Positions 25,301 to 63,214 of a DNA stretch of 64,000 bases are shown piece after piece. This stretch comes from an uncultured Chloroflexia bacterium (GTDB taxonomy: Bacteria; Chloroflexota; Limnocylindria; Limnocylindrales; CSP1-4): positions 94,078 to 158,077 of the forward strand of contig CAWBGT010000016.1 of NCBI GenBank assembly GCA_963788375.1. Reading direction: 5' to 3'. A program made the translations under genes and the position numbers. Under the pieces are notes generated by a model, which worked only from the letters and a program-made list of their open reading frames with translations, ran no database searches and was not told the DNA's origin. Numbering within the stretch: the stretch's first letter is position 1; the number at the start of each line of letters is the position of its first letter.

Positions 25301-25313
25301 TCGTCACACCTCG

Positions 25314-28319: not shown

Positions 28320-28338
28320 ACGAGATTGTGGGCGGGGA

Positions 28339-28677: not shown

Positions 28678-28699
28678 GGTGCGCTTGGAACGGTGCGGA

Positions 28700-28870: not shown

Positions 28871-28992
28871 TGAGACCTCCCCAGATGAGAGCGTGATGCC
28901 CAGACAAACCGTGGGCTGCCTCGAACCGTAGTCGGTCGCCGTGTCATCGCCAATGGGACGATCGTCCTGTCGCGGGCCGGATCTCGGCGGCG

Positions 28993-29157
28993 TCAGCGGC
29001 CGCCGTGTGCGGCGTCCACCAGGACGCCGATCAGCTCCGCCAGCGTGCCCCCGAAGAAGACGACGATCACGGCTGCCAGCAGCACGGCGCTGCCCAGGAC
29101 CAGGGACGTCTCCAGGATGCCCGGGCCGGGGTCCGCGGCGCCCCGCCGGTCGATCAC
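28993..29157 (-). CDS. Candidate 54-aa single-pass membrane protein, translationally coupled (GTGA) to the upstream sensor kinase
   Basis: GTG start overlaps the kinase stop. High GC3 codon usage in this frame. Hydrophobic core 'LVLGSAVLLAAVIVVFFGG'. Below the ORF-track threshold. Confidence 0.4.
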   Translation of the reverse strand: MIDRRGAADPGPGILETSLVLGSAVLLAAVIVVFFGGTLAELIGVLVDAAHGGR

Positions 29158-39076: not shown

Positions 39077-39122
39077 GCCGGACCTGCGGCGACCGCGGGC
39101 TGCGGGGCCGCCCGCTCGTCGC

Positions 39123-41078
<1,956 letters not shown>

Positions 41079-45114: not shown

Positions 45115-45363
45115 TGATCGAGCGCGCGCAGAGTCGGTCCCATCCTATCTGGCGCCATCTGTGGAGCGCTCCGCTTGTCGGTGGTTGACAATGTGAAGGT
45201 GCTGTGCGGTTCGATGGCCTGGAGAGACGTCCTCGATCTTGACGACGGCACCCTCGAGGGGAATGCCGCGGTGTTCGGCGTACTTCTTGAGCAGACCCAG
45301 TGTTCCGCTGGTGGCGAACCGGCTACCCGTGCCTTCTGGGGTCAACTAGCCGCTCACTACGCC

Positions 45364-46824
45364 TGGATGAACCATCCTGGTGTCCACGCAAGCGGCGAAC
45401 TTGAAGCAGCGATCTCGGGTGCGCGGGTGGTCGCGGGCGAGCCCCCTGGCAGGGTCGGCCGCGGGCCCGAGCACGTTGTACACGTCCTGACGCAGGCCCT
45501 TCAGGTGGGTGGACATACCCGTCAGGTCTGGCGGTGGATTGGCGCCGATGCTGGCCGCCGGTCGTCGGTCGTACTAACGGGACAAGGGTGGCACCCGATC
45601 CCGGAAGCCTTGTCGCACGCAGCCACGTCTAGCGGAGGCCGCATCCTCGACCTGGCGTCCCGGCCCGGGCTCCTCCAGGACAGGGCCACACGATTGCGCA
45701 AGGCCCTCGCCACAGCCAATACGGTCGTGATCCACGCTCACCCGTTCGACGTCGTGCCCCTCCTCTCCCTCGAAGGCTGGCAGACACGACCACCTGTCCT
45801 CACCGTCAATCACGCTGATCACAGCTTCTGGATCGGCTTGCGGTCCACGGACGTCGTCGTAAGTTTCCGGGAGCACGGAGCCAAGTTAGCTGCAGATCGT
45901 CGGGGAGTTGCCCCCGAGCGATCAAAGGTCGTTCCCCTGCCCGTGGACCCTCCTCAAGGCCGATCCCCAAGCACCTGGCGAGCCGACAACGGCTTGCCGG
46001 CCGACGCATTCGTGACGCTGAGTATCGCCTCTCAGTACAAATACCGTCCCTGGGGAGATCTGGACTTCATCGACGCGATCGGTTCTTTGGTTGCGCGGAT
46101 GCCGAACCTGCACGTGCTGGTGGTCGGTCCTGAACCGACTGGACGGTGGGCGCAGAGTGAGCTGGCGACGGGCGGGCGCTTTCGAGCCCTTGGGATCAGG
46201 CGCGATGTTGCTGACCTGCTGGGTGCGGCGGATGTGTATCTGGACTCGTTTCCATTGAGTTCGCTGACCTCGATGCTCGAGGCCGGTAATCGTGGGATCC
46301 CGGTGATGAAGTTGAGATCGGGACCTGGCCTCGAGATCCTCAGCGGCGACTCGCCCGGCCTGGATGAGACAGTCATCACGTTCTCGACAACGAACGAGAT
46401 GGAGCAAGTACTGCGGGCATTGGCCGAGGATGCCGCGAGCAGGACCAGCCTCGGCGCTCGTACGGCGGATGCAATCCACCGCGTATCGTCCGGTGCGGGC
46501 TGGATGCATGCCGTGGAGGAGGCATATGCGGCCGCCGCGCACATGCGCGCGACCAACGCACCACCCCTAGTGGCTCTGGCTGAGCCAAACTACGGGTCCC
46601 TCGATCGCCGTCTCGCGGGCCTCCAGCTCCAAGGGGTGGGCCTCCGCGATGCAGTTCGAAGCCACCTTCGCTACCTCCCCGTCCAGGACCGCTCGCGACT
46701 CTTGTTCGCACTGCGACGCGACCACCCCCTGTCCAGCGCCGCCGCGGTCGTGCCAGATTGGGCTCGCAGCAGGCTTCGCGGCTTTGCCGAAACAGGTACC
46801 GCGGAGCGATTGGCGGGGCGCTGA
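45364..46824 (+). CDS. Putative GT-B (GT4-like) glycosyltransferase of atypical composition; start uncertain
   Basis: The C-terminal 'LLGAADVYLDSFPLSSLTSMLEAGNRGIPVM' resembles the GT4 EX7E region. Lower GC and frequent rare codons (tta, cta, aca, agt, aaa) compared with its neighbours. The ORF is open upstream to 45175. Confidence 0.45.
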   Translation, partial: WMNHPGVHASGELEAAISGARVVAGEPPGRVGRGPEHVVHVLTQALQVGGHTRQVWRWIGADAGRRSSVVLTGQGWHPIPEALSHAATSSGGRILDLASRPGLLQDRATRLRKALATANTVVIHAHPFDVVPLLSLEGWQTRPPVLTVNHADHSFWIGLRSTDVVVSFREHGAKLAADRRGVAPERSKVVPLPVDPPQGRSPSTWRADNGLPADAFVTLSIASQYKYRPWGDLDFIDAIGSLVARMPNLHVLVVGPEPTGRWAQSELATGGRFRALGIRRDVADLLGAADVYLDSFPLSSLTSMLEAGNRGIPVMKLRSGPGLEILSGDSPGLDETVITFSTTNEMEQVLRALAEDAASRTSLGARTADAIHRVSSGAGWMHAVEEAYAAAAHMRATNAPPLVALAEPNYGSLDRRLAGLQLQGVGLRDAVRSHLRYLPVQDRSRLLFALRRDHPLSSAAAVVPDWARSRLRGFAETGTAERLAGR

Positions 46825-46843: not shown

Positions 46844-48195
46844 TCAGGCCCTACGGCGCTTCTTGAGGCGTGCCGAGTAGAGTTCGGCGTCATCGCCGAC
46901 CAGCACCTTGGTCGGCAGCTTGAACGCCGCGAGTTGGCCAGCGCACGCGGTCCGGATGCGGACCTTCAGATTGGCGGCAGTCTCCGGCTTGTCGGTGACC
47001 ACCCGTGCGACCACCGCGTGGCCCGAGCAGCGCGTGCGGCTCCCCGAACACGGCGACATCGCGGATGTTGTCGAGGTCCAGGATCGCCTGCTCGACTTCA
47101 GCCGGGTAGACCTTCTGGCCTGCCACGTTGATGAGGTCGCTGTCTCGCCCGAGGATCCGCAGCCAGTCCCCATCCACCTCGACCAGGTCCTGAGTGTTGA
47201 ACCATCCATCGTCGTCGAAGCCGCTTGGCGCGTTGAGGTAGCCCACCATCGCATAGTCGGATCTGATCCACGAGATCCCGTCAACGACCTTCGTCTGGAA
47301 GCCATCACCGCCGATCCGCACCCAGAGGGAGCCGTCGTCGCGGGACTTCGACCGCAGCACGCCGAGCTCCGACAGCCCGTACGTCTGCTGGAGCACGACC
47401 CCCGGAAATGCCGCGCGGACGCGATCGAGGGTCTGCTGGGGCATAACCTCCGTGCCGTAGGTGATCTTCCGCAGCGATCCCAGTTCATGCTGCTCAAGCA
47501 CGTCGGAGCGGATGAGCAGGTTCAGGAACGAGGGCGTGGTGGGCAGGACCTCGACGCGGTGCTGCTCGATCGCCCGGCAGATCGTCACGACGGATCGATC
47601 GCCCACGGTGACCACCGTTCCGTGGCCGCCCAGGATCGAGAAGATCGTGTTGATGCCGCCGAAGTGGTCCAGCATGAGGAAGGCGATGGCGACGATCGGC
47701 CGGCCAGGTCGCCGGTACTTCTCCAGGACGACAGCCATGTCGTGGAGAATTGCTTTCGGGTCGCCCGGAGCTGCCGGACGAGAACAGGATCAGGCCGGGC
47801 GAGCCAGCCTCGATCTGGTCGGTGAGCAGCGGGTGTTCAGGGGTGGTCGCCGTGCGAGCGATGGTTCGTTCCGCGCCACGGCAATCGATGATCCAGCCAG
47901 CCTCCGACAGGTCCAGGATCGTGCTCATCTCCACGACGGCCTCGGCGGTCACCGGGACGATGGTGCAACTGTTCCGCAGGAGCGCCAGGAGCAGTGCGAA
48001 GACCTCCGGCGAGTAGTCGCCCAGCACGACCGCGATGTCACCACTCTGCACGCCCGCGGCGTTCAGCCACCGGCCCGCGGCGTCCGTCTCGTGCAGCAGA
48101 TCGCCATAGCTAACTGACCGCCCCCGATCGACGAAGGCAATCGAGCCGGGCGCCGTCGCGAAGCGCTCCAATAGGAGCCCCAGGATCTCGATCAC
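46844..48195 (-). CDS. AMP-dependent synthetase/ligase (ANL superfamily; candidate acyl-ACP/CoA ligase) with two apparent +1 frameshifts in G-runs
   Basis: Three ORF pieces in different frames cover consecutive ANL regions. Removing one g from 'tccgggcgaccc' restores the AMP-binding motif SSGSSGDPKAI. Removing one g from 'ctcgggccacgcgg' joins …FGEPHALLG to HAVVARVVTDKPE…LAAFKLPTKVL. Confidence 0.65.
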
Positions 48196-49107
48196 GTGAC
48201 GACGAACGCCATGACTTCGGGCACCGGCACGCCCGGCCGTCGCGGGATCGCCGCCCAGGCCGATGCGTACTGGTGGATCTCGAACCCCGCCGTGTTCAGG
48301 TGGTCGATGATGTCGGCGGCCGTCCGATACAGGTAGATGTGGTCCGCGTTGGCGGCGTTGAGGGCCGTTGCCAGGAACGCTCGACCGCCTGGACGAAGCA
48401 TGGCCCGGAGGCCGCGGAGGAACCCGACCGGATCCTCAAGGTGCTCCAGGACCTCCACGCACACCAGGTGGTCGACGGGCGCCGGCAGGTGCTCCATAAC
48501 GTCCTGCACCCGGACCACGAAACGGTCCCCAGACCCGAATGACGCGACGTGCCGCTCCGCGAACCGCGCGGACGAGGCGCTGATGTCGAAGGCCGTGCCC
48601 GTCAGGTCCGGCGCCCCAGCTAGCAGGCGGCGCGAGTAGATCCCGGTCCCCACGCCCACGTCGTAGAAGGTCCCGGGTCCCGCGCGTCGCGCCTCCTCCA
48701 CGAAGGCGTGGTCGAAGAAGCGGAGCTGTCGATAGTGGTGCGGCCAGAGGAAGTGAGAGAGAAGCAGGCCGGGCAGGTAGCACGCGGTCATGTACTCGTC
48801 GTTCGCGTAGACCTCGGCGGCCACCTCCGCGTAGGTTCGGTGGCGGTACTCGCGAGTCTGCTCGAACGTCGCCTGGAGCCGGAGTGCCTCGAGGGCGAAC
48901 CTCGAGTAGCCATCAACGGCGCGGGCGATGTCTGCAGGATCCGGCAGGAGGCGGACGAATCGTGTCCTCCGTGTCCGCGGCCCAGCCCTCACCCAGGAGC
49001 GCCCGCGTGCGCGGCACGGCGTCCCGGAAGACGGGCGACGCCGATCTGAACTGCGCCTCAAGGCGGTCCAGCGCGGGCGTTGGGACAGGTTCTCCTGGGT
49101 CAGCCAC
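48192..49107 (-). CDS. Class I SAM-dependent methyltransferase (apparent frameshift around 48960-49060)
   Basis: GTG start overlaps the ACP stop. The N-terminal 60 aa is in one frame, and the remainder ('…YDVGVGTGIYSRRLL…VLEHLEDPVGFLRGLRAMLRPGGRAFL') in another. Confidence 0.55.
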
Positions 49108-49339
49108 CGGCGAGCTGCTCCTCGACGACCGCCAGGATGATCGGGTAGGAGGTCATCACCGCGACGTCGTCGTCCGGCACCGTGATGCCGAAGGCCTGCT
49201 CCAACGCGATCACCAGGTTCATGTGCCGCACGGAGTCCCACGTGTCGACTGTGTCCGTGCTCGTGTCCGGGCCGACGTCGGCGGGGTCAAGCTCGAGCAT
49301 CGCCGCGACGACTTCTCGCAGCTTGTCCTCAGTAGGCAC
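49100..49339 (-). CDS. Acyl carrier protein
   Basis: 79 aa with a 'DTWDSVRHMNLVIALEQAFGI' phosphopantetheine-attachment Ser motif. Confidence 0.8.
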   Translation of the reverse strand: MPTEDKLREVVAAMLELDPADVGPDTSTDTVDTWDSVRHMNLVIALEQAFGITVPDDDVAVMTSYPIILAVVEEQLAGG

Positions 49340-51146
49340 GGATCACCTCGACGAAGGGGGGTGGTGTAGCATCTGGCGATTCCGGGAGATCCAGTTCGTA
49401 GTCGCGTCGGCCGTCCGGATGGGCGCGGACCAGCGTGAACCCCGCGCGCTCCCAGAACTCCCGGACCTGCCCGTTCTTGGCCGTGGGCAGATAGGTGGCC
49501 CCCAGGCGGCGGCATCCGCGCGCGCGCAGGTCATCGAACACCACCGGCCAGCAGGCGTCCTCCACGCCTCGGCCCAGGATCCGGCAGCTGAGCAGAAAGG
49601 AGTCCACCTTCGCAGTTTCGCCCTCGAAGGTCACGATCGCCACTCCGGTCAGGCCGGAATCACCGAACCTGTCTTGGACGTTGACCGAGAGCACGTCCGC
49701 CAAACCGGAGCCCATCAGATCCAGGATCTCGGCCTCGGTCCGCCGGCGCGTTGTGAGGTTGAACTGGTTGGATTTCTGCGTGAGCTCGGCAATCCTGGGC
49801 GCGGACGCGCGGTCGTTGAGCCTGATCGTGACGCGGATCCCAAGGGAGGCAAGGTAGGCCTCCTGGGTAGCGAAGTTGACCCGGTCCGCCAGCGCCAGCT
49901 CCCGGATCCTGTACTGCGCGGTCTTGTCGGTGTCCGCGATAGTCGGACCCCCGGCCTGGAACAGATCCGCGATGTCGTCCAGCATCCGCGGGTAGGTTGA
50001 GAGGTCCGCTGGTACCTGAAACACGCGAACCGCCGGCAGTCGGGTGCGGACGGCGTCGCACTCGATGGCGGCGTCATCCACGAACACGAGCGAATCCAGC
50101 CCGATCCCAAGGGCCTCGGCGATCTCCCGAAGGTTGTCCGCCTTGGCGCCCCAGTTGATCCGCCGGATGGTGATGTCTTCGTCGCGCAGGACCATGTGGG
50201 GGTGCCGGGTGAAGACCTCGGCAACGTCCGCCTCATTGTTCCTGGAGCAGAGGCCCAAGAGCACGCCGTTCCGCCGCAAGGCGAGAAGCCGGTGCTGCGC
50301 CTCCCAGTAGATGCCCGCAGGGTTGCCCTGCGGTGCCAGGGTGATGCCGCCGATCAGGTCCTCGCCGATGGTCCCGCCCCACAGAGTCCCATCGCAGTCC
50401 AGGATCAGCGCTTTGAGGAAGTAGGAGTCGAACCCACGGCTCCGCAGGAAGACCTCCTGGGCAAGCGCGTCGGCGAACGTCGGCGAGAACGGGGCTGCGA
50501 AGCGCCTGTAGGACCGAGGATCGTGGCTGCGTTCCCAACCGATGCGTGCGCAGAGGGCGGAGGTATCGATGAGCTCGACATTGGGGTAGGCCTTGGCGGC
50601 CCCCAGCAGCACCTCGTTGAACGCGGCGATGGCCGCCGCGGAGCTGCCCGCGTCCGGGCCGGTGGCGGGGCTGCCCATCGCATGGAGCGTGCCGACGAGG
50701 ATGCGCGGAACCGATGCTGCGGTTGCGAGCGCGAGGTCAAGCTCGGCGCGGTAGCCGTTCACGCGGTCGAGCAAGAGATCCGGCTCCAGGTGCCCCGAGC
50801 GGGCCTCGAATGCCGGCATGAGTGCGTCGAACCAGTCGAGGATGACGATCGCATCCACTCCGCCCGCGGCAAGCTCCCGGACACCCCCGACGCGGTCCGC
50901 GATGGGTCCGAGCGACACCGTCGCTTGCAGATCACCGAGGACGGCGTGCTTCCGCAGGAAGGGCGCCAGAAGGTCCAGGGTGACGTTGCCGGAGAGCCCG
51001 ATGCGGACGGTGCGCGCATCCAGCACCATGCCCTCCACCCGGGTAACGAGCCGAGTGACGGCCGCCAGGTCATCGCCGGCGCGAGCAAGGGCGTCACGCG
51101 CCTCCTTGGGCCCCGGCTCGCCGGTCACCGGGATCGCGTCCTTCAC
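49329..51146 (-). CDS. FkbH-like protein (HAD-IIIC phosphatase-like acyl/glyceryl-ACP loader with C-terminal GNAT-like domain)
   Basis: 'LILDCDGTLWGG' (DxDGTLW, diagnostic of the FkbH/HAD-IIIC family), then 'VFVDD' and a GNAT-like C-terminus. GTG start whose GTGA overlaps the upstream gene. Confidence 0.7.
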   Translation of the reverse strand: MKDAIPVTGEPGPKEARDALARAGDDLAAVTRLVTRVEGMVLDARTVRIGLSGNVTLDLLAPFLRKHAVLGDLQATVSLGPIADRVGGVRELAAGGVDAIVILDWFDALMPAFEARSGHLEPDLLLDRVNGYRAELDLALATAASVPRILVGTLHAMGSPATGPDAGSSAAAIAAFNEVLLGAAKAYPNVELIDTSALCARIGWERSHDPRSYRRFAAPFSPTFADALAQEVFLRSRGFDSYFLKALILDCDGTLWGGTIGEDLIGGITLAPQGNPAGIYWEAQHRLLALRRNGVLLGLCSRNNEADVAEVFTRHPHMVLRDEDITIRRINWGAKADNLREIAEALGIGLDSLVFVDDAAIECDAVRTRLPAVRVFQVPADLSTYPRMLDDIADLFQAGGPTIADTDKTAQYRIRELALADRVNFATQEAYLASLGIRVTIRLNDRASAPRIAELTQKSNQFNLTTRRRTEAEILDLMGSGLADVLSVNVQDRFGDSGLTGVAIVTFEGETAKVDSFLLSCRILGRGVEDACWPVVFDDLRARGCRRLGATYLPTAKNGQVREFWERAGFTLVRAHPDGRRDYELDLPESPDATPPPFVEVIRAY

Positions 51147-52339
51147 AGCGTAGTCAGCCCGCCGTTGATTCGGATCGTCTCGCCGGTGATGTAATCCGCG
51201 CCCGGTGAGACGAGGAAGGCGACGGCATCCGCCACGTCGGACGGTTCGGCGAGGCGACGAAGCGGCGCCTGGCGCGCCAGGACGAGGCGCGCCTTCTCGG
51301 GAATGTCCGCCACCATCGCCGTCTCGGTCATCGCCGGCGACACGCAGTTGACGTTGATTCCGATCGGGCCGAGCTCCACTGCCAGTGACCGGGCCAGCGT
51401 CGCCAGCGCAGCCTTGCCGATAGCGTACGCAGTCCACTTTGGCGTTGGCGCACCGTCGAGGACGCCGGACGTGACGAATACGATGCGGCCGAACCCCTGG
51501 TCCCGCATCGCAGGCAGCGCCGCCTGCGCCAGGAACAGCCCACCGCGGGCGCCGGTGTCAAGGTGACCCTGGACCTGCGCCCAGCTGAGCTGCCCCAAGG
51601 CGGACGGATCGATGGGCGGCGATGCCGCGTGCACGACCGTGCCCACCGCGCCGAACCGGCGGATCGCGGCCGCAATCAGCTCCTCCACGGACGCCTGGTC
51701 CGCAAGGTCCACGCGAACGGCTTGGGCCTCCGTACCGTCCGCGACGAGCGAGGCGGCGAGCGCTTCCGCGCGGTCCGGACCCGAGTGGTATCCGGCGACG
51801 ATGGCAAACCCGTCACGAGCCAGCGACCGGCAGATGGCCTGGCCGATGCCGCCCGCAGCTCCGGCCACGACCGCCACCTTCGGCCGCTCGGCCAAGGGCT
51901 CCGCCGGCGTCGGTGGTTGGAGGACCCTGACCGTCCCCTTGCCCGTGAGCACGGCCTGGTTCCGCTGGTTGTCGATACGGGTGTTCAGCTCCAGGAGTCG
52001 GTCGCGCTCGTGTTTGGCGGTGACCGAGCAGGTCACCGTCAGCGTGTCGCCCAGGCGCACGGGAAGGAGGAAGTCGAATGCCTGCGAGACCCAGACCGCT
52101 CCGCCCCCCGGCAGCCTTGTGCCGATCAAGGTCGAGAGGAACGACGCCCCGAGCATGCCGTGGACGACGATGTCCTTGAACGGCGTCGTCTCCGCGAAGG
52201 CACGATCAACGTGGAGCGGGTTGTCGTCGCCGGTGAGGTCGACGAAGCGGCGAACGTCGTCGCCCGTGATCACGCGGGTGAGGCTTGCGGTGTCACCGAC
52301 CGCAAGGTCGTCGAACGACCGGAAGCTCACATTACTCAT
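51143..52339 (-). CDS. Bifunctional MaoC-like (hot-dog) dehydratase plus SDR (FabG-like) reductase
   Basis: N-terminal 'DDNPLHVDRAFAE…' hot-dog motif. C-terminal 'VAVVAGAAGGIGQAI' Rossmann and YxxxK-like catalytic region. ATGA overlap with the KAS III gene. Confidence 0.75.
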   Translation of the reverse strand: MSNVSFRSFDDLAVGDTASLTRVITGDDVRRFVDLTGDDNPLHVDRAFAETTPFKDIVVHGMLGASFLSTLIGTRLPGGGAVWVSQAFDFLLPVRLGDTLTVTCSVTAKHERDRLLELNTRIDNQRNQAVLTGKGTVRVLQPPTPAEPLAERPKVAVVAGAAGGIGQAICRSLARDGFAIVAGYHSGPDRAEALAASLVADGTEAQAVRVDLADQASVEELIAAAIRRFGAVGTVVHAASPPIDPSALGQLSWAQVQGHLDTGARGGLFLAQAALPAMRDQGFGRIVFVTSGVLDGAPTPKWTAYAIGKAALATLARSLAVELGPIGINVNCVSPAMTETAMVADIPEKARLVLARQAPLRRLAEPSDVADAVAFLVSPGADYITGETIRINGGLTTL

Positions 52340-53367
52340 TCTTCTCCCGTCCCCCACATCCAGCACGACGCGCCGAACCCGAAGCCAGCGCCTACTCCTG
52401 CGAATACGACGCGATCCCCGTCCGCAAGCCGGCCGGCCGTCACCGCGTCGGCGAGGGCAATCGGGATCGACGCGGCCCCCGTGTTTCCGATTGTTTCCAC
52501 GTTGGTGAACGTCCGCTCGGCGGGTACGTGCATCTTGGCCATGGTGTAGTTGATGATCTGCAGGTTGGCCTGGTGAAAGACAAACAGGTCTACGTCCTCC
52601 ACCGACCAGCCCGCGTCCGCGCAAGCGTCGCGGATCGTCCTTGGCAGGTGCGTGACGGCCTGCTTCCAGGTCGCCAGCCCGTTCATCTCCATCAGGCCCA
52701 AGTTCGGGGTTGCGTCACCCAAGGCGCCACGTCCGCCATCGCGCGTGGCGAATGGGTGTCGTGATCCGCCACCCCGCAGCCGGACTGACTCGAGGTTGGA
52801 CGTGTCCGCATGAAATGCTGCCCCCATGACGCCACGTCCTGCGGGTACGCGACTCAGGACCGCCGCGCCTGCTCCGTCACTGAAGAAGATCGCAGTCTCG
52901 ACATCCGCATAGTCAACGAACGGGCTCAGGATCTCCACACCAACGACGAGCGCGGACTCCAGGCGAGGATCCCGGTGCATCCGGTCCGAGACAGCTGTCA
53001 GGGCACTCACGAACCCGCTGCAATTGGCCTGGAGGTCGTAGAACTGGCCACCTTTGACGCCCAAGTCCCTGTGCAGACGAGCGGCCACCGGCGGGAAGAG
53101 GTAGTCGCCGGAGAATGTGGAGACCACGATCATTCCAAGTTGGCTCGCATCAACCCCAGCCGCCTCCAGAGCCTGACTGGCCGCATCGAGGCTCAGGCTG
53201 GATGCCGTCTGCCCCTCGTCGATGACGAATCGTTGCCGGATGCCGGTCTTCTCCACGATCCACGCCGGAGTTGTTCCCGCGAGCGTCGTCGCACACAGCT
53301 CCTCGTTCGTGTGCCTCCGGGTGCCCAGCGCCCGGCCCGTCCCCACGATCCCGATACCGCCGCTCAT
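52336..53367 (-). CDS. 3-oxoacyl-ACP synthase III (FabH/KAS III-like; may be an acyl- or O/N-acyltransferase)
   Basis: 343 aa thiolase fold with active-site Cys in 'LQANCSGFV' and His/Asn regions conserved. Confidence 0.75.
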   Translation of the reverse strand: MSGGIGIVGTGRALGTRRHTNEELCATTLAGTTPAWIVEKTGIRQRFVIDEGQTASSLSLDAASQALEAAGVDASQLGMIVVSTFSGDYLFPPVAARLHRDLGVKGGQFYDLQANCSGFVSALTAVSDRMHRDPRLESALVVGVEILSPFVDYADVETAIFFSDGAGAAVLSRVPAGRGVMGAAFHADTSNLESVRLRGGGSRHPFATRDGGRGALGDATPNLGLMEMNGLATWKQAVTHLPRTIRDACADAGWSVEDVDLFVFHQANLQIINYTMAKMHVPAERTFTNVETIGNTGAASIPIALADAVTAGRLADGDRVVFAGVGAGFGFGASCWMWGTGEE

Positions 53368-54032
53368 GTCATCGGAGTCGCAGCCACGCCAAGGAGGCGG
53401 CGCAGAGGTTCATTGCCCGACTTGATCTCGCCGAACGTCCCCGCGCGCCCATGCCCGGGGTAGATCATCGCCCCGTCCGGCAGGAGATTCCACACGCGCT
53501 CGATCGATCGGACCAGGCTGGGCTTGTCCTGCTCCGGCAGGCGCACGAGAAACGTGTCATCGCGGTAGATGGTGTCACCTGTGAATACAAGGCCGTCCAC
53601 CAGCAGCAGGCAGCTTCCCGGTGTGTGCCCAGGGACGTGGATCGCCTCAACGCGTCCGCCCTCCCCGTCCCAGACCTTGCCCTCGCCCATGGCTACAAAC
53701 GGCTCGGGCACCGTCATCCGACGGTCCAGCTTGAGGGCCATCATCAGAAGGTTCGAGCCTGCGGCAACCCTCCCGTCTGCCTCATGGAAGAACACCGGTG
53801 CATCGAAGGCACGGCGCAGCGGCTCGGCACTCGCGAGATGATCGAAATGCCCGTGTGTGGCGAAGACGGCGTCCGGCACCGTGGCGCGGCGCTCGAACTC
53901 GGCCACGATGGCCGCGAGGTCCAGCCCCGGGTCGATGACGATGCAGTGTCCGGGCACACTGGACAGGTAGAGGTAGGTGTTCGACGCGAAATCGCCATTG
54001 GCGATCCGGACCACGCGCTCCGCCACTTCCAT
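53364..54032 (-). CDS. MBL-fold metallo-hydrolase (glyoxalase II/thioesterase-like)
   Basis: 'THGHFDH' HxHxDH zinc motif. Confidence 0.7.
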   Translation of the reverse strand: MEVAERVVRIANGDFASNTYLYLSSVPGHCIVIDPGLDLAAIVAEFERRATVPDAVFATHGHFDHLASAEPLRRAFDAPVFFHEADGRVAAGSNLLMMALKLDRRMTVPEPFVAMGEGKVWDGEGGRVEAIHVPGHTPGSCLLLVDGLVFTGDTIYRDDTFLVRLPEQDKPSLVRSIERVWNLLPDGAMIYPGHGRAGTFGEIKSGNEPLRRLLGVAATPMT

Positions 54033-54760
54033 CAGGCGTGTACGCCCCCCAGGAAGATCGTCTGGGCGGTTACGTAGCCGCTGGCAGGGGACGCGAAGAA
54101 GTCGACAACGTTGAGAATGTCGCCCGGAGTGGCCATCCGGGCGAGCGGAAGGTCGGCCACCACCTTCTCAACCTGCTCGCGCGGCAATTGGCGGAGCATG
54201 TCGGTCTCAAGGGCGGAGACGGCCACCGTGTTCACGGTGATGCCATAGCTGGCCAGTTCCTTGGCCAGGACACCGGTCAGAGTCATGGATGCTGCCTTCG
54301 TCGCGGCGTAGACGGAATCGCCGACGGGCTCAAGAGCCGCAGCCATCGAGCCGATGTTCACGATCCGTCCGTATCCGGCCCGCCGCATCAGCTTGGCGGC
54401 CTCACGGGAGGTGAAGAACACGCCCAGAAGGTTGGTGCGAACCATTTCGTCGGCCCGCTCCGAGGGCATCACCATCGCGTGCATCGAAGTCAGGACCGCG
54501 GCGGAGTTCACGAGGATGTCCACGCGGCCTTGCTCCCGGCCGATCGCAACAAACGCGGACCGGACCGCATCGCCATCGCCCACGTCCAGCCTGTGGTGGG
54601 TATACCGCTCGTCCTCGACGGTCCCAGGCCCGCGGCTCATACCCACCACCATCGCGCCGGCGTCCAGGAAGTGCCGCACGAGCAGAGCACCCAACCCCCG
54701 GCTGGCGCCCGTCACCGTCACCACGCGACTCGAGTACAGGGAGGGCGCGACTGTGGTCAC
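54032..54760 (-). CDS. SDR-family oxidoreductase
   Basis: 'VTVTGASRGLGALL' cofactor motif and a Ser-Tyr-Lys triad. Confidence 0.75.
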   Translation of the reverse strand: MTTVAPSLYSSRVVTVTGASRGLGALLVRHFLDAGAMVVGMSRGPGTVEDERYTHHRLDVGDGDAVRSAFVAIGREQGRVDILVNSAAVLTSMHAMVMPSERADEMVRTNLLGVFFTSREAAKLMRRAGYGRIVNIGSMAAALEPVGDSVYAATKAASMTLTGVLAKELASYGITVNTVAVSALETDMLRQLPREQVEKVVADLPLARMATPGDILNVVDFFASPASGYVTAQTIFLGGVHA

Positions 54761-55053
54761 GCGACGACGAGTTCCAGGATGTAGTCGCGGAGGGTCGCGA
54801 CAGTGGTGTAGGGCGACACGGGTCGGGACATCGCCCGGTCGTCGGCGAGCGCGACATCAAGCCCGTACTCGATGTTGAGCGTCGTCTCGACGTCCGTGAT
54901 GACGGAGACGAACTCCAGCGAATCGAGGGCGGCGTCCTTGCCGAACAGGCCCGTGTCCACGGTCGGGGAGATGCGCTGTCCTGGATCACGCTCGGCGTTG
55001 AGGGCCTCGATCGCCGCGAAGATCACGGCCTCCACGGTTTCAGGTCGCAGCAT
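54757..55053 (-). CDS. Acyl carrier protein-like (second ACP)
   Basis: 'GKDAALDSLEFVSVITDVE' DSL phosphopantetheinylation motif. Start at MLRPET chosen to limit overlap with the upstream GNAT gene. Confidence 0.6.
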   Translation of the reverse strand: MLRPETVEAVIFAAIEALNAERDPGQRISPTVDTGLFGKDAALDSLEFVSVITDVETTLNIEYGLDVALADDRAMSRPVSPYTTVATLRDYILELVVA

Positions 55054-55627
55054 TGACATCCTCACGAGGTTCCGCGCCCCGCACAAGGGCGCTCATGCGG
55101 GGCAGGGCCACCGTCTGGTACTCGTCCTCGCTCATGCCGAGGCAGATTGCATCGCAGAACCGGCCGCCGATCAGGTAATGCTCTCGCAGCCGGCCCTCCT
55201 CGCGCATGCCGAGGAACAGTTGCCACTTCACCATCAGCGCGTTGCCGTCCGCGACGGTTCCGTACACGCGGTGCAGACCCAGTTCGTCGAACGCCAGGCG
55301 GTAGAGGAGCAGCATCGCCTCAACCGCCGCAGGGATCCCGCGAACCGCCTCCGGCTCTCCGATCAGGAACCGGGCAGGTTCCGCTCGCCGGTTGACGGTG
55401 TCGATCGCCACGAGCGACAACATCCCCACGGGTCGTCCACTCGCCAGAGCGATGATGAAATTCAATTCCGAGTCCGGTCGTGTGGCGATCCACGCGCGCT
55501 GATCGTCCACGGTGGCGGCGCCGCGGTTCAGCATCGCAGCGCGACCGCTCGATCGCCACCGCAGCGTGATCTCCGCGTCGTGAGGTGCGAGGGGCCGGAG
55601 GACTACGTATCGTCCACGAAGTTCCAT
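55040..55627 (-). CDS. GNAT-family N-acyltransferase (RimL/Acetyltransf_3-like)
   Basis: GNAT fold pattern (the 'LVAIDTVNRRAEPARFLIG…HRVYGTV' core). Start placed at MELRGRYVVLRP. Confidence 0.6.
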   Translation of the reverse strand: MELRGRYVVLRPLAPHDAEITLRWRSSGRAAMLNRGAATVDDQRAWIATRPDSELNFIIALASGRPVGMLSLVAIDTVNRRAEPARFLIGEPEAVRGIPAAVEAMLLLYRLAFDELGLHRVYGTVADGNALMVKWQLFLGMREEGRLREHYLIGGRFCDAICLGMSEDEYQTVALPRMSALVRGAEPREDVNAAT

Positions 55628-55676
55628 CGTGGCCGAATCATAGCCGCGGCGGACCCCGCTTCCCACGGCCACCCCC

Positions 55677-57098
55677 CTAGTCATGGCGTCCCGCCCAGAG
55701 CCACCGAGCCGAGGCCACGCCGGCCAGGATGCCACCGACGCCGAGGATGATCGAGATCAGCATGTCGTCCAGCGAAAGCCGGGCGAGCTGCGCCACCACG
55801 AGCACGGCACAGGTGACCGCAATGGCAAGCTCCTCCCTCCCGAACCGGGGGGGCACTAGCTCGCGGGCCGCTACGGACACGGCGATGTAGTAGATGACGT
55901 ATGCACCCAGGTAGCCGATCCCTGCCCCGGCGATCCCCACAGCCTGAAGCCCCACCACAGAGAGGACGATGAGCGCGAACCCGCCGATCGCTTCAACCGC
56001 GAGGAAGGTACCGCTGGCGCCGCGGGCAAGCAGGACGAACGAGAGCGTCCAGGCCGGCAGTTTGAGCATGTCGCCGGCCAGCTGCCAGCCCAGGACGTCG
56101 ACGGCGGGGGCAAACTCACCCGAGTACAGGACGGTCACCAGGATTGGCGCGGCGGCGCTGGTGAGGAGGATCAGCGGAATGCACACCATCAGCACGAAAC
56201 GGAGCTGGCGGCGGGCCGTGCCCTCGATGGCCGGCGTGCCGCTGATCGCGGACACCCGCGGGTAGTAGTCCTGGGCCATGGCGTTGAGCAGGAACGCCAG
56301 ATAGGCGACGGAGATGGTCGCCGCAGCCCGGTAGTAGCCCACATCGGCAGTCTGCAGCATCGCCAGCACGAGGAACGGAATCGCGAGTTGCGCCCCAGCT
56401 CCCAGCAGCTGGCTGACCGTGAAAGGACCGCCGAACCGCAGCAGGGCGCGGAGATCCGCCCCGCGTCGCTGTCGGTCGATCCTCGCAGCAACCCGCGGTA
56501 CCACCATGAGCGCCACGGCCATTGCGACGATCCACCCGACGAGTGACCCGATCAGGAGACCGGCGGCAACGGCGCCCGTCCCCCCCACGAAGACGGCGGC
56601 AACTAGCGCCAGTGCCATGCCTGCGGCACTCGCGGCGGTCACGGTGGCCACCCACTTGACGCGATGCAGCCCGTTGACGAGTCCCGCCTCGACCCCGGCC
56701 AGGGCCGTGAAGACAACCGCGATCCCGACCAGGACGACGTCAAGTTCGCTGCCGCCGTCGCCGAACAGGAAGGTGGCGATCTGGTCCCGGAGCGCGATCA
56801 ATCCGAGTGCAATTGCCGACGCGGCCGCGAGGACGCCCAGGCGCGCGGCCTGGTGCGCGGAACTGATTGCCAGCGCGTCTCCGCTTGCGGTCGCCAGGGC
56901 AACCTGCCGGATGAGCCCCGTGGCAATCCCGAACCCGCCGACGAGGACGCCGAGGGTGAGCAGGCTCGACAGGAGACCGACCGTGCCGGTCCCGACCGGG
57001 CCCGCCATCACAGCGATCAGCTTCGCGCTCAGGGCTCCGGCAATCAGCGACACGACCGACCCGCCAGCCAGCGTCGCCGTGGCTCGCGCGATCGTCAT
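55677..57098 (-). CDS. Wzx-like polysaccharide/oligosaccharide flippase (MOP superfamily)
   Basis: About 474 aa with 12-14 TM helices in the Polysacc_synt pattern. ATGA overlap with the upstream aminotransferase. Confidence 0.7.
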
Positions 57099-58192
57099 TG
57101 GTGCCGTGCGGCCAGGGAAGTCCCCGCGATCCATGCCGCGGCGCCCGGCCCCATATGTGGCCCGATGGGAAGGCTCAGGACCTCCCTGCCGAGCCGTTCA
57201 GCGAGGGGCAGCGGGCCCCACGGCCCGCAACCGCTCAGGGCGCTCTGGAGATGGGGGGGACGCGGGTAGTGGATCAGCGTGGTCACACCCGCTGTCCCCA
57301 GCTCCGCCTCGAGTGCGTCCCGCTCCATGCTGCGGATCACAAACAGATGCCAGACCGGTGACACCTCGGGGGCGATGTCAGGCAACTGCACCCGAACCGG
57401 GTCGATCTCGCTCAAGTAGGCGGCGGCGATGAGCGTCCTGCGTGCATTCCACTCATCCAGATGGCGCAGCTTCACGCGGAGGACGGCCGCCTGCAGCTCG
57501 TCCAACCGGCTGTTGAAGCCAAGCTCCTCGTGGACGTACTTGGTTGTCGAGCCGTAGTTGCGGAGCCGTCGCACCCGCTCTGCGATGCGTTCGTCGGACG
57601 TCGTGACGGCGCCGGCGTCCCCAAGCGCGCCGAGGTTCTTTGCGGGATAGAAGCTCCACGCGGCTGCGTGTCCCAACGAGCCTGCGCGCCGTCCTCGGTA
57701 GACCGCACCGTGCGCCTGTGCGGCGTCCTCGATCACCCGCAGGCCTCGCCGGTCCGCGATCTCAAGGATCGGATCCATGTCTGCGGGCTGGCCGTACAGG
57801 TGAACGGGAACGATTGCTCGCGTCCGCTCCGTGATCGCCGCGTCGATCAGTTCCGGGTCGATGTTCATAGAGTCGAGGCGCGGTTCCACGGGGACGATCG
57901 TGGCGCCCGTCCGCTGGACCGCCAACCATGTCGCGATGAACGTGTGGGACGGCACGATGACCTCGTCGCCGGGCCCGATCTCACACGCGCGCAGGGCGAG
58001 CTCCAGGGCATCGAGCCCGCTGCCGACACCAACGGCATGCGAGGTCCCGATGTAGGCCGCCCACTCCTGCTCGAACGCCTCGACTTCTGGGCCCAGCACA
58101 TACCGCCCCGCGTCCAGCGCTCGGGCGATCACTTCGTCGAGCTCAGGCCGCAACTCGGCGGTGGCTGCCCGGAGGTCGAGGAATGGGATCAT
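57095..58192 (-). CDS. DegT/DnrJ/EryC1-family sugar aminotransferase (FdtB/QdtB-like)
   Basis: 365 aa; DegT-family N-terminal motif '[21 protein letters not shown]' and PLP-binding Lys in '[17 protein letters not shown]'. Next to an FdtA-like ketoisomerase. Confidence 0.8.
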
Positions 58193-58197
58193 CGGGC

Positions 58198-58614
58198 CTA
58201 GGTCACGGCGGCAAGGAAGTCCGAGTACTCGCGGAAGTAGTCGGCCTCGTCGTAGTGAGCCGAAGCGAGCACCAAGGAGACCGAGCCCGACGAGAAGTTC
58301 TCGAGCTCGCGCCAGATCATCCTGGGGACATAGAGGCCGTAGTACGAGCGGTTCAGGAAGTAGCTGCGTCGGTCCGCGCCATCATCGAGGATGACGTCGA
58401 AGCTGCCCGACACGGCGATGATGAATTGCTGGAGGTCCCGGTGCGCGTGACCCCCGCGACTCTCGCCCCCCGGCACGTCATAGAGATAGTAGACCCGCCG
58501 AATCTCGAACGGCACGTCGACCCCACCCTCGATTGGGGTGAGGTTGCCGCGGGGGTTGGCTATGCGCCGCAGGTCGATGATTTCGGGCGTCTGAGAGGGC
58601 CATCGTGTCGCCAA
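58198..58614 (-). CDS. Sugar 3,4-ketoisomerase (FdtA/WxcM-like cupin)
   Basis: '[47 protein letters not shown]' matches the FdtA family. Only a TTG start is available in frame. Confidence 0.65.
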
Positions 58615-58675: not shown

Positions 58676-59930
58676 GTGCATGCTGGCACCAGTCTTGCAC
58701 CGCGTAGACTGCCGCAGATGTCGAGTCCGTCGCTGACAGTGCCCGCAGCCGTGCCCGCAGTCGGGTCCACCGGCGGCATCCGCAGGCGGATCGGCGCCAT
58801 CGCCACGGACCTCCGCCCGGACGCCGGACTCGTCGCGATCTTCATCGCAACCCGTCTCCTGGTCGTGTTCGCCGCGCTGATCGCCGAGTACCTGCTCCCG
58901 CGCAACCCGGCGCTCACCTCGGGCGCATCCGGCCCCGTGTTGACGAGCCTCACGTCGTGGGACGGTTGGTACTACCTCGGCATCTCGGCCGGGGGATATC
59001 AGGCTGACGCCGTGGCGGGCGCCTACACCAATGTCGCCTTCCCCCCGCTGTTCCCGCTGCTGGTCCGGGCGCTCTCGACGCCGTTCCCCGCGTACCAGGG
59101 CCTCGTGGCCGTCCTGGTCGCCAACGTGGCGTTCCTTGGCGCGCTGGGGCTGATGACCCGACTCGGCACGCCCTACCTGGGCCGGCGGCGTGCCTCGCTG
59201 GCAGCGGGCCTCCTCGCGATCTACCCGTTTGCCTCGGCCTTCGCGATGGCCTACACGGAGAGCCTGTTCCTGCTCCTGATCCTGGCTGCGTTCCTGGCAG
59301 CGGAGCGCCGGCACAGGGCGTGGGCGGGCATCTTCCTCGCGCTGGCTACGCTGTGCCGGCTGCAGGGCGCCGTCCTGATGCTGCCGCTGTTCATCCTGAT
59401 GCTTCGCCAGGACGGCTGGCGCCCTCGGCCGTCGATGGCCTGGCTGCTGCTCGGCGGTGTCGCCGCGGCCGGCTTCCTGCTCTACGTCGCCTCGGTCACG
59501 GGCAGTGCCACCGCGTACCTGGATGCGCAGCAGGCCTGGGGTCGCGGGGGTGTCGGCGGGTCTGCGCCGGACAGCACGATCGGTGCCAGGTTCAGCCCGT
59601 ATCAGCTGGCGCTGCTGCTGACGCTGCTGTGGTCCGTCTTCCTGCTGGTCTTCGTGCGCGTGGACCGGATGCGTCCGGAGTACTGGCTCATCCCCGTCCT
59701 GTTCATCGGAGCGGAGCTCTCCGAGCGGGTCGCTGGAGGCTGTGGGTCGAGTGACCATGGCGGCATTCCCCTATGCCTGGCTCCTTGCCAATCGGCGGTC
59801 CACGTTCGCGCGCCGGGCCTGGCCGGCGATCTCGGTCGGGCTGTTCACGCTCGTCGCGGTGCTGTCCTTCGGCGGGTACTGGGTTCCTAGCCCTCCGGTC
59901 CCGGTTACAGAACGCACCACCGGGACCTAG
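58676..59930 (+). CDS. GT-C membrane mannosyltransferase-like protein (PIG-V/GT76- or GT87-like) with an apparent frameshift near 59720-59740
   Basis: Multi-TM protein with 'YTNVAFPPLFPLLVRAL…' loop. The last roughly 60 aa ('…AFPYAWLLANRRSTFARRAWPAISVGLFTLVAVLSFGGYW…') are in the frame of ORF 59742..59930, which has high GC3. Confidence 0.55.
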
Positions 59931-59940
59931 ACTGCGGCGG

Positions 59941-60744
59941 ATGTCGGAGCAGACCCTCACCCTCGTCTTGCCGGCCTACAACGAGGAGGCCCGGCTTGGC
60001 TCTGCCCTGGACGAGCTCTTCGGCTACCTCCATCGCCGAGGCCACCAGGCGCGCGACGGTCGTCCCGGAGCCGAGGATCTGCCCGCGACCGTCCAGGTGC
60101 TGGTGGTTGACGATGGCTCCACCGACGGCACGGCGGACCTGGTGCGCGGCCGAGCGGAACACGCGACCGGGGAGTTGGAACTCCTGACCGTCCCCCATGG
60201 CGGCAAGGGCGCGGCGGTCCGGGCCGGGATGCTCCACGCCCCGGGAGACCTGGTGGTGTTCGCGGATGCCGACATGGCCACGCCGCCGGATGAGCTGGTG
60301 CCGCTGGTGCTCGCGCTCCAGGCGGCAGACGCCGCATATGGCTCCCGGATCCAGCCGGACGGCTCCGACATGCGCAGGTCCCAGCCGCCCTGGCGGCGCG
60401 CCCTTGGCAGGGCCTTTCACCTCCTGGCAAGGATCTGGGTGGTGGGCCAGGTGCCGGACACGCAGTGCGGCTTCAAGGGCTTCCGACGGGACGCCGCCCG
60501 GGACCTGTTTGCCCGTCAGAAGGTCACCAGCATCGTGTTCGATGTCGAGATCATCTACCTCGCCCGACGCCGCGGCTACAGCCACGTCTCCGTGCCCGTC
60601 CGCTGGGCGGACCGCCGCGGATCCCGCATGCATCCGGGCCCCCGGCTGGCGCTCCGGGTGGGCTGGGACCTGTTCCGGATCCCGCTGATCCACCGCGAGG
60701 TCCGGCGCGCCCCGCGAGGGACGAACGACCAGCCGGCTGCCTGA
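59941..60744 (+). CDS. Polyprenol-phosphate glycosyltransferase (GT2, Ppm1/DPM1/GtrB-like)
   Basis: 'LTLVLPAYNEEARLGSALDEL…VLVVDDGSTDGTADL…ADADMATPP' GT2 motifs and the 'DTQCGFKGFRR' signature. Confidence 0.8.
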   Translation: MSEQTLTLVLPAYNEEARLGSALDELFGYLHRRGHQARDGRPGAEDLPATVQVLVVDDGSTDGTADLVRGRAEHATGELELLTVPHGGKGAAVRAGMLHAPGDLVVFADADMATPPDELVPLVLALQAADAAYGSRIQPDGSDMRRSQPPWRRALGRAFHLLARIWVVGQVPDTQCGFKGFRRDAARDLFARQKVTSIVFDVEIIYLARRRGYSHVSVPVRWADRRGSRMHPGPRLALRVGWDLFRIPLIHREVRRAPRGTNDQPAA

Positions 60745-60758
60745 GGCGCGCGGGTTCG

Positions 60759-61826: not shown

Positions 61827-61863
61827 GCCACCCTTGGTTCGGTTCCCGGCGATACTCGGCGCG

Positions 61864-63120: not shown

Positions 63121-63214
63121 GCTCGCGCCAGGTCGGCACGGTCCTTGGGTCGTCCGGTTGCGCGCGCAACGGTTTCGGGTCCCGGTGCTATGCTCGCGAG
63201 CGTGTCCCCCACGA

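Follow-up and report, generated by a model that had tools for sequence, protein, structure and literature searches.

A 64,000-nucleotide stretch of DNA from an uncultured Chloroflexia bacterium of the order Limnocylindrales (contig CAWBGT010000016.1; the whole stretch is referred to here as the window) carries a thirteen-gene operon whose proposed product is an N-acylated dTDP-3-amino-3,6-dideoxyhexose destined for a surface glycan of the Wzx/Wzy type, made through an acyl branch that starts from a lactyl unit; we put the probability of this reading at about 60%. The operon is tightly coupled and occupies 11.8 kb of the minus strand (46844–58614), and its genes encode, in order, an FdtA-like ketoisomerase, a DegT-family aminotransferase, a Wzx-like flippase, a GCN5-related N-acyltransferase (GNAT), a putative carrier (carrier protein 1), a FabG-like short-chain dehydrogenase/reductase (SDR), a metallo-beta-lactamase (MBL)-fold hydrolase, a 3-ketoacyl-acyl carrier protein synthase III (KAS III), a fusion of a MaoC-type dehydratase and a ketoreductase (KR), an FkbH-like protein, a second acyl carrier protein (ACP2), a methyltransferase and an AMP-ligase. 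Families were assigned by searches with Pfam and NCBIfam models, and the model cutoffs quoted below are the curated ones. There are ATGA overlaps at the DegT/Wzx, Wzx/GNAT, MBL/KAS III and KAS III/MaoC junctions and GTGA overlaps at the carrier/SDR, MaoC/FkbH and methyltransferase/ligase junctions; the remaining junctions are overlaps of 1–14 nt, and the open reading frames (ORFs) are contiguous. The third-position G+C of the called frames is 0.77–0.90, which supports coding. The 5′ end of the operon is ~60 bp from a divergent GT-C-like gene and its 3′ end meets a convergent GT1-like gene (45175–46824). A promoter and terminator scan of the operon found 0 promoter-like sites, and terminator-like sites were below shuffle expectation. 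The initial annotation, made from the letters of the sequence, had listed these thirteen genes on this strand and in this order, and the Pfam and NCBIfam searches find all of them where it placed them; the ATGA and GTGA couplings that it described are present at seven junctions, and the models that it had named as a check (FkbH, FdtA, DegT, KAS III and PP-binding) all match. Its ligase and two ACPs are also present, with the qualifications that the ligase is spread over three frames and is not one intact ORF, and that carrier protein 1 has no Pfam or NCBIfam match.

When one genome per GTDB species was scanned with the FkbH protein, 18 distinct loci were recovered (30–53% identity; L-numbers below), and these were compared with all of the window proteins by tblastn. 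A core of nine genes (GNAT, carrier protein 1, SDR, MBL hydrolase, KAS III, MaoC-KR, FkbH, ACP2 and ligase) is present in the same order in 13 of the 18. These complete cassettes are in Limnocylindrales, Polyangiaceae, Piscinibacter, two other Burkholderiales, Acidobacteriales, two Methylobacterium species, a locus titled Candidatus Intricatilinea gracilis, Solirubrobacteraceae, Gaiellales, Mycobacterium rhizamassiliense and M. marseillense, and they cover at least six phyla, with Chloroflexota, Myxococcota, Acidobacteriota and Thermoleophilia-like actinobacteria represented. Piscinibacter koreensis, Methylobacterium sp. Leaf125 and M. brachythecii are carriers that have been cultured. Both FdtA and DegT are in the fetched flank of eleven of them, and the methyltransferase is in eight, where it follows ACP2 (the window arrangement) or precedes the GNAT. 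Because the core is syntenic in 13 loci and FdtA and DegT adjoin it in 11 of these, we consider the acyl toolkit to be functionally tied to the 3-amino sugar; a gene-neighbourhood comparison of this kind was among the checks that the initial annotation had proposed. Homologues are abundant in the databases, with thousands of 90%-identity clusters for FkbH and about a thousand for the GNAT, and their names are automatic only (e.g. ‘FkbH-like’, ‘HAD-IIIC family phosphatase’, ‘RimJ/RimL’, ‘diamine N-acetyltransferase’). When plasmids were searched with FkbH, the only matches were distant paralogues (32–40% identical), none of them in an orthologous cassette. The G+C content of the cassette region is 0.65–0.69, compared with 0.70–0.73 in its surroundings, and this slightly lower value, together with the patchy distribution across phyla, suggests that the cassette was acquired by horizontal transfer.

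The toolkit could alternatively make a small free acid, a lipid or a polyketide unrelated to the sugar, with its position in a glycan locus being coincidental. There are departures from the common arrangement that would fit this. One example is a sub-cassette of KAS III, MaoC-KR, FkbH and ACP2 that stands without sugar genes in two Cyanobacteria-related metagenome-assembled genomes (L011, 7870–12038, and L016, 5209–9320), where the GNAT, carrier protein 1, SDR, MBL hydrolase and ligase are also lacking. A second is the Polyangiaceae cassette (L002), which has neither FdtA nor DegT in its fetched flank. However, FdtA and DegT adjoin the core in 11 of 13 complete cassettes across unrelated phyla, translational coupling joins the window toolkit to FdtA, DegT and Wzx in a single operon, the thioesterase or export gene that a free product would need is not there, and the region downstream of the L002 cassette still has sugar-type genes (an epimerase/dehydratase and a thiamine pyrophosphate (TPP) enzyme), and a coincidental position is therefore highly improbable. 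In L011 and L016 the C5 building block may serve another use. We note that the block in L016 is preceded by an alanine-dehydrogenase-like gene and followed by several ORFs without a family match, and that the L002 cassette is followed (14422–19466) by DmpF/DmpG-like acetaldehyde dehydrogenase and aldolase genes, an NAD-dependent sugar epimerase/dehydratase and the TPP enzyme, an arrangement that recalls branched-chain sugar pathways. A conventional fatty acid synthase or lipid A cluster was considered and rejected, as the operon is coupled to genes for the sugar and lacks FabD, FabF, FabZ and Lpx genes; homology searches thus do not show the conventional lipid A, fatty acid or polyketide cluster, unrelated to sugars, that the initial annotation had named as the result that would count against it.

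The first two genes would account for the sugar. The FdtA/QdtA-type protein (58198–58614) matches PF05523 with 178 bits and is a predicted dTDP-4-keto-6-deoxyglucose 3,4-ketoisomerase; its best PDB matches are 5TPU, FdtA (2PA7) and QdtA at 1e-30 to 1e-35, with the WlaR/WlaRB ketoisomerases also found, and the His56/His58 motif is kept in 13/13 homologues. Its TTG start at 58614 is uncertain, and the ORF is open up to 58953. The DegT-family protein (57095–58192; PF01041, 369 bits) is a predicted pyridoxal phosphate-dependent sugar C3 aminotransferase; its closest solved relatives are all C3 aminotransferases (DesV 2OGA, 1e-137; QdtB 3FRK, 6e-108; 7N63; WlaRG; WbpE), and Lys185 is kept in 13/13 homologues. 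Because the relatives of DegT are C3 aminotransferases and the FdtA matches come with the His pair, the operon appears to encode the two committed steps to a dTDP-3-amino-3,6-dideoxyhexose of either gluco or galacto configuration, in which FdtA would isomerise dTDP-4-keto-6-deoxyglucose to the 3-keto sugar and DegT would aminate C3. The NDP-3-amino-3,6-dideoxyhexose branch of the initial annotation is supported by these relatives (DesV and QdtB; FdtA, QdtA and WlaR). The third gene (55677–57134) encodes a Wzx-like flippase of the MOP family with matches to Polysacc_synt_3 and Polysacc_synt; its likely start is the ATGA overlap at 57098, the WzxE model scores 82 bits, under its cutoff, and the protein is called at 473 aa in an independent assembly.

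The acyl-building enzymes retain the residues expected of active proteins, and those catalytic residues that were checked hold in the window and in 10–20 homologues, depending on the protein. The FkbH-like HAD-IIIC phosphatase/acyltransferase (49329–51140, 603 aa) matches TIGR01686 with 240 bits against a cutoff of 146.65 and over model positions 3–320 of 323, and D248, D250 and T252 (the DxDxT motif) and Cys519 are invariant in 20/20 sequences. An AlphaFold2 model (pLDDT 89.6) has three domains, the N-terminal and HAD domains resembling BF1531 (3SLR) and the C-terminus having a GNAT fold that includes Cys519, as fits a phosphatase/acyl-transfer enzyme; we take this Cys to be the carrier of the acyl-enzyme intermediate, as in OzmB. 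ACP2 (49100–49339), the predicted dedicated carrier of FkbH, matches PF00550 (PP-binding) and other ACP models, keeps Ser36 in 18/18 sequences and overlaps the FkbH stop by 11 nt. The fusion upstream of FkbH (51143–52339) consists of a MaoC-type dehydratase (PF01575) and a FabG-like ketoreductase (adh_short_C2); the GDxNPLH hydratase motif and the Tyr/Lys pair are conserved, and the SDR half resembles FabG structures. The stand-alone FabG-like SDR (54032–54760; adh_short and adh_short_C2), a proposed 3-ketoacyl-carrier reductase, scores 163 bits with FabG models, under their cutoffs, and keeps Tyr151 and Lys155 in 16/16. The glyoxalase II/SolJ-like MBL-fold hydrolase (53364–54032) matches PF00753 with 91 bits and the SolJ and GloB models below their cutoffs, has 2ZWR and hydroxyacylglutathione hydrolases as PDB matches, and keeps HxHxDH in 15/15. 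The glyoxalase II class hydrolyses 2-hydroxyacyl thioesters, and the window protein may be a 2-hydroxyacyl-thioester hydrolase or an editing enzyme. A class I S-adenosylmethionine (SAM) methyltransferase (48192–49103; Methyltransf_12, _11, _25 and _23) is a proposed O-methyltransferase, its best PDB matches being the O-methyltransferases UbiG and CalO6, both weak. The KAS III (52336–53367) is a FabH-type condensing enzyme (NF006829, 291 bits against a cutoff of 249); its top PDB matches are all FabH, and Cys116, His265 and Asn295 are kept in 17/17 homologues. KAS III-like O-acyltransferases of the CerJ type (the CerJ/ChlB6 group) have lost the residues for decarboxylation, with another residue in place of the triad Asn. 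A CerJ-type acyl transfer onto the sugar, raised by the initial annotation, is not supported here, given the complete Cys-His-Asn condensing triad in all 17 homologues and housekeeping FabH proteins as the closest solved relatives and best structural matches.

Besides the GNAT, the MBL hydrolase and the ligase, the inventory comprises one condensing enzyme, one dehydratase, two FabG-like ketoreductases, one methyltransferase, two carriers and FkbH, with no enoyl reductase. This is exactly the set that a 3-hydroxy-4-methoxy C5 acyl group with a lactyl starter would call for. In the most parsimonious route, which is the one that we propose, FkbH would take a C3 unit from 1,3-bisphosphoglycerate to give glyceryl-ACP2, the fused MaoC dehydratase would remove the 3-hydroxyl to give pyruvoyl-ACP2, and the fused ketoreductase would reduce this to lactyl-ACP2. 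The methyltransferase would then O-methylate the lactyl unit to 2-methoxypropionyl, which KAS III would condense with malonyl- or methylmalonyl-carrier protein 1, and the stand-alone SDR would reduce the 3-keto group to a 3-hydroxy group. Finally, the GNAT would move the resulting 3-hydroxy-4-methoxypentanoyl group (possibly 2-methylated, from a methylmalonyl extender) to the C3 amine of the sugar; cassettes without the methyltransferase would give the 3,4-dihydroxy form. For the other two proteins we can only speculate that the MBL hydrolase releases a lactyl or 2-methoxyacyl thioester and that the ligase re-activates the acid as the KAS III primer, or alternatively that the ligase loads an extender acid onto carrier protein 1. 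The DH-KR fusion is directly upstream of FkbH-ACP2, and FkbH-type loading leading to lactate-ACP is on record (PMC7901079). A full-text literature search found nothing on lactyl-ACP with FkbH, on drrC/gtfB or on the serotype 16 acyl name discussed below. The description ‘chain-extended, reduced and O-methylated’ in the initial annotation is a fair summary of the capacity of this enzyme set.

The same architecture could make a different acyl group, and FkbH itself is a reason to weigh this, its best-known product being glyceryl-ACP en route to methoxymalonyl-ACP; the NCBI name of the M. rhizamassiliense orthologue is ‘enzyme involved in methoxymalonyl-ACP biosynthesis’. In one form of this alternative, glyceryl-ACP2 itself would prime KAS III, with the dehydratase and the second SDR acting after condensation to give a 4,5-dihydroxy- or O-methylated pentanoyl or pentenoyl group. 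In another, the FkbH unit would be oxidised to a hydroxy- or methoxymalonyl-ACP2 extender, giving a 3-hydroxy-2-methoxyacyl group. The fused SDR also matches the FabL enoyl reductase model (147 bits, below cutoff), and Campylobacter jejuni, with an FkbH-domain gene in a glycan locus, makes a glyceroyl-type and not a lactyl-type acyl group (PMC7099621, PMC3068675). However, both SDRs best match FabG ketoreductases, and the DH-KR fusion adjoins FkbH rather than carrier protein 1. Priming by glyceryl-ACP2 requires an enoyl reductase, or else the second ketoreductase is idle, and the extender form leaves the MaoC domain without a role. Genes like FkbK (3-hydroxyacyl-CoA dehydrogenase) and FkbI (acyl-CoA dehydrogenase) are absent; the methoxymalonyl-ACP pathway proper was rejected because the equivalents of these two are missing. 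Taken together, the two forms are somewhat unlikely relative to the lactyl-started group.

The GNAT (55040–55627; Acetyltransf_3, PF13302), the proposed amino-sugar N-acyltransferase, is 57–71% identical across all 13 complete cassettes, and its AlphaFold2 model (pLDDT 91) has a generic GNAT fold with a Foldseek probability of 1.0 to many GNATs; its nearest matches are TTHA1799, SpeG and PA3270. There is precedent for N-acylation of dTDP-Fuc3N by a GNAT, in FdhC. Carrier protein 1 (54757–55059) is a divergent ACP-like protein with an invariant Ser47 in an LDSL motif; its sole PDB profile match is an ACP (E = 0.49), and hhalign aligns it with ACP2 at E = 0.018. The carrier label comes from its small size, the invariant LDSL Ser and these weak profile matches, and from nothing else. 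The ANL-family AMP-ligase (46844–48195, ~447 aa when intact; PF00501 on two frames) is the most conserved protein of the cassette, with a middle part that is 65–79% identical, and it is found in every complete cassette; its P-loop, YGLSE and GQK motifs are conserved among homologues, and its similarity is generic, to acyl-CoA and acyl-AMP ligases.

This conservation raises a second alternative for the final step, in which the ligase and not the GNAT forms the amide. The MBL hydrolase, which thereby gains a role, would release the completed acid, and the ANL ligase would adenylate it and couple it to the sugar directly or via carrier protein 1, leaving the GNAT for another task, e.g. decarboxylative priming. 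The GNAT has no specific resemblance to sugar N-acyltransferases, and malonyl-decarboxylating GNAT loading domains are known in polyketide synthases (PKSs; PMC7901079). Nonetheless, the window protein is of the Acetyltransf_3/SpeG/PseH-like (amine N-acyltransferase) type and not a CurA-type loading GNAT, and the resemblance of the ligase to acyl-CoA and acyl-AMP ligases is generic. With the FdhC precedent also favouring the GNAT, amide formation by the ligase seems very unlikely.

The ligase gene is also the only one among the window genes in which a frameshift was noticed. Comparison with the intact orthologue of L001 by tblastn, and direct reading of the sites, show that it is split over three frames by two +1 insertions, one near 47765 in a GGG run just after the SSGSSG P-loop and one near 47030 at GGGCC. 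The cassette could therefore be a decaying remnant in this organism, with real frameshifts, a dead ligase and a sugar that is N-acetylated by another enzyme, unacylated or not made. Two independent +1 frameshifts in one 1.35-kb gene, with no others noticed among ~55 window genes, are hard to attribute to chance, and we estimate at ~2% the likelihood that two random errors over 64 kb both fall in the ligase. However, both insertions are in short G/C runs, as is typical of consensus errors, and the other twelve genes retain all of their catalytic residues. Moreover, the Logan assembly ERR15459710 encodes KAS III and FkbH proteins identical to those of the window, and no stop interrupts its ligase ORF over the 349 aa or more that precede the contig end, a stretch that extends past the first frameshift site. 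Because the ORF is open across that site, we think that at least the first frameshift is an assembly artefact, although two in one gene is still odd, and we regard decay of the cassette as unlikely.

In mycobacteria, a query with the M. rhizamassiliense FkbH found 80–87% identical proteins in M. mantenii and M. marseillense, and the 90% cluster of the M. marseillense protein includes one labelled M. intracellulare that was seen on 35 contigs. The gene order in the M. marseillense locus (L019) is two FdtA paralogues, DegT, a sulfotransferase-like gene, methyltransferase, GNAT, carrier protein 1, SDR, MBL hydrolase, KAS III, MaoC-KR, FkbH, ACP2 and ligase, and after the ligase there are two GT2 genes, three ABC-2/ABC genes (drrC/B/A-like) and two mmpL genes; this is the layout of a glycopeptidolipid (GPL) locus. 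In the M. avium complex (MAC) the serotype-specific genes sit between gtfB and drrC. In 2008, Fujiwara et al. reportedly described the terminal sugar of M. intracellulare serotype 16 as 3-(2′-methyl-3′-hydroxy-4′-methoxy-pentanoyl)amido-3,6-dideoxyhexose, and a gtfB-drrC cosmid is said in the same work to transfer serotype 16 to M. avium. The serotype 16 cluster may contain this cassette, and the acyl group predicted here, in its form with a 2-methyl group, would match that substituent exactly. We know of no characterisation of the individual enzymes of either the window or the MAC cassettes.

Several points weigh against the proposed lactyl-started pathway as a whole. The MBL hydrolase and the ligase are conserved, yet have no necessary role in the scheme, and the ligase is frameshifted in this assembly. 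The dehydratase is of the MaoC type and not the PKS-type dehydratase of BryA-like modules (see below), the methyltransferase resembles O-methyltransferases weakly, and the resemblance of carrier protein 1 to an ACP is marginal. The N-acyltransferase role of the GNAT is proposed from gene context: with the PseH model it reaches 27 bits (cutoff 93), and neither its phmmer matches nor its top 50 fold matches include FdhC, PseH or WecD. On the sugar side, rmlA and rmlB are not in the 64-kb window, and the Polyangiaceae cassette has no FdtA or DegT in the flank that was fetched.

The cassette may have a broader significance. It is conceivable, though the odds are against it, that it represents an unrecognised mobile module present in many phyla, a stand-alone type II mini-PKS that draws on a glycolytic intermediate through FkbH and serves solely to N-acylate surface 3-amino-3,6-dideoxyhexoses. 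If so, the action of a glyoxalase-II-like hydrolase on a 2-hydroxyacyl-carrier thioester would have no precedent described for sugar tailoring, nor would a short ANL ligase working with a highly divergent carrier, and the window would be the first example from a Wzx/Wzy-type glycan outside the mycobacterial glycolipids. The enzymes of the cassette appear to be uncharacterised, and its breadth across phyla appears to be unrecognised in annotation. Among the dominant epitopes of O-antigens, of S-layer and flagellin glycans and of mycobacterial GPL serotypes are unusual N-acyl groups of amino-dideoxy sugars, and few of the enzymes that build the non-acetyl groups are known. With its compact and strongly conserved nine-gene core, the cassette provides a route from 1,3-bisphosphoglycerate to a hydroxy/methoxy C5 acyl amide that can be put to the test; its elucidation would give functions to genes currently named ‘HAD-IIIC phosphatase’, ‘RimJ/RimL acetyltransferase’ or ‘MBL-fold hydrolase’, would explain a MAC serotype determinant, and would permit acyl sugars to be predicted from genomes according to the presence or absence of the methyltransferase.

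The window is ~70% G+C and chromosomal, with an ATP synthase operon, MurA, MreB, a Tad pilus operon and two-component systems, and it has no rRNA, tRNA or Rfam match. The genes on either side of the operon include many with glycan functions. To one side are a PMT_2-type GT-C (33857–35497), a Wzy_C protein (35589–37838), a second DegT aminotransferase (about 37748–39100, minus strand), a PglF/WbpM-type membrane 4,6-dehydratase (39123–41078, minus strand), a PglC-like phosphoglycosyl transferase with a methyltransferase domain (41263–42975, minus strand) and two GT2 glycosyltransferases (43178–45114); on the other are GT-C, GT2 and GT87 genes (58676–61826). With the second DegT beside the PglF-like dehydratase, the sugar that initiates this glycan may be bacillosamine-like or QuiNAc4N-like. 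The region fits a Wzx/Wzy-type lipid-linked oligosaccharide with a bacillosamine-like first sugar, for a polysaccharide or for protein glycosylation. The PglC-like ORF is 570 aa, with the Bac_transf domain at residues 161–361 and a C-terminal class I SAM methyltransferase at residues 404–545, an unusual architecture for an initiating transferase. The convergent GT1-like gene (45175–46824, plus strand) has a weak Glyco_trans_1_4 match, an atypically low G+C content (0.61–0.65) and weak codon bias. In the Solirubrobacteraceae locus (L014) a 33% identical homologue is located directly after the ligase, so it is possible that this gene encodes the cognate glycosyltransferase; a 41% identical PglF-like gene is also present there, and these extra genes in common are the one hint, from the sequence itself, of a Thermoleophilia-like affinity. 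Apart from this GT1-like gene in L014, none of the window glycosyltransferases recurs across the cassette loci.

Elsewhere in the window, the Tad/Flp pilus operon (21889–27693, minus strand) encodes two TadB/C-like proteins, CpaF, a CpaE-like ATPase with an N-terminal receiver domain and an RcpC/CpaB-like protein. The ~1.4-kb gap at 27700–29150 has a single 87-codon ORF in a third-position G+C-based scan (≥70 codons) and small Flp pilin genes may lie there. No Pfam match was obtained for four sizeable ORFs of good codon bias (e.g. 15469–17265, minus strand; 32189–33328, minus strand; and 61729–63999, plus strand), the last two being at the edge of the glycan region.

Comparison with known systems places the operon within a recognised kind of locus. 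In C. jejuni NCTC 11168 the FkbH-domain gene cj1302 is among the flagellar glycosylation genes, so that here, as in the window, a glycan locus includes an FkbH-domain gene; the product linked to it, di-O-methylglyceroyl pseudaminic acid, is an amino sugar N-acylated by an O-methylated C3 hydroxy acid (PMC7099621, PMC3068675). The systems differ in that the acceptor in C. jejuni is a nonulosonic acid and the 2,3-di-O-methylglyceroyl group keeps both glycerate oxygens and is not chain-extended; the comparison is one of gene content and product. The genes near cj1302 include ACPs, a FabH paralogue, a methyltransferase and an acetyltransferase. A second comparison is with the lactate-starter modules of trans-acyltransferase (trans-AT) PKSs, of which the DH-KR-FkbH-ACP modules of bryostatin BryA and FR901464 are examples. 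Here the dehydratase, ketoreductase, FkbH and ACP activities are adjacent in that order, as in the translationally coupled genes of the window. However, the window proteins are stand-alone, the dehydratase is a hot-dog MaoC-type (PF01575), and the product would go to KAS III and then to a sugar; the window has no KS-AT modules.

Other systems also decorate amino-dideoxyhexoses. In the modified-viosamine pathway of Pseudomonas syringae flagellin (vioA, vioB, vioR, vioS, vioM and vioT), the 3-hydroxyacyl group that N-acylates the amino-dideoxyhexose is the work of a KAS III together with a FabG-like reductase, and FdhC of Acinetobacter nosocomialis is a GNAT that N-acylates dTDP-Fuc3N with 3-hydroxybutanoyl. 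Both of these differ from the window in using a plain acetyl starter and in having no FkbH, DH-KR, MBL hydrolase or ligase; moreover, VioB is a left-handed beta-helix acyltransferase, and the window GNAT has no specific sequence or fold similarity to FdhC. In the Vibrio cholerae O1 perosamine tetronate genes (rfbK–rfbO), an ACP and an AMP-ligase-like enzyme within an O-antigen locus supply the hydroxy-acyl group for an amino-dideoxyhexose, although the group is 3-deoxy-L-glycero-tetronate, the acceptor is a 4-amino sugar, and there is neither FkbH nor KAS III. Loci that pair amino-sugar genes with the ACP-dependent making of an unusual acyl group are therefore already a known kind of system.

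The closest relative is the MAC GPL locus, where 12/12 cassette genes are orthologous in L019 (37–65% identity) and collinear except for the position of the methyltransferase. In L019 the methyltransferase is before the GNAT, and there are two tandem FdtA paralogues (9–853) and a sulfotransferase-like gene (2847–3923) that the window does not have. The mycobacterial copy decorates a glycopeptidolipid and is flanked by GT2, drrABC-like and mmpL genes, whereas the window has Wzx inside the operon, in a Wzx/Wzy-type locus for a PglC/PglF-initiated glycan; no drr, mmpL or non-ribosomal peptide synthetase genes are present in its 64 kb, and the context is one of Wzx, Wzy_C, PglC-like, PglF-like and GT-C/GT87 proteins. 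The N-acyl sugar reading of the initial annotation therefore stands for its sugar branch and for the tie between the acyl toolkit and the sugar, and it is not supported for CerJ-type acylation or for the suggestion that the pathway is new, the same twelve genes being present in the MAC GPL locus and FkbH, ACP and FabH genes in the C. jejuni glycan locus being already on record. Since an orthologous mycobacterial cassette exists and the kind of system is known, this is not a new pathway class; the window operon and the mycobacterial cassette are orthologous, each in a glycan context of its own.

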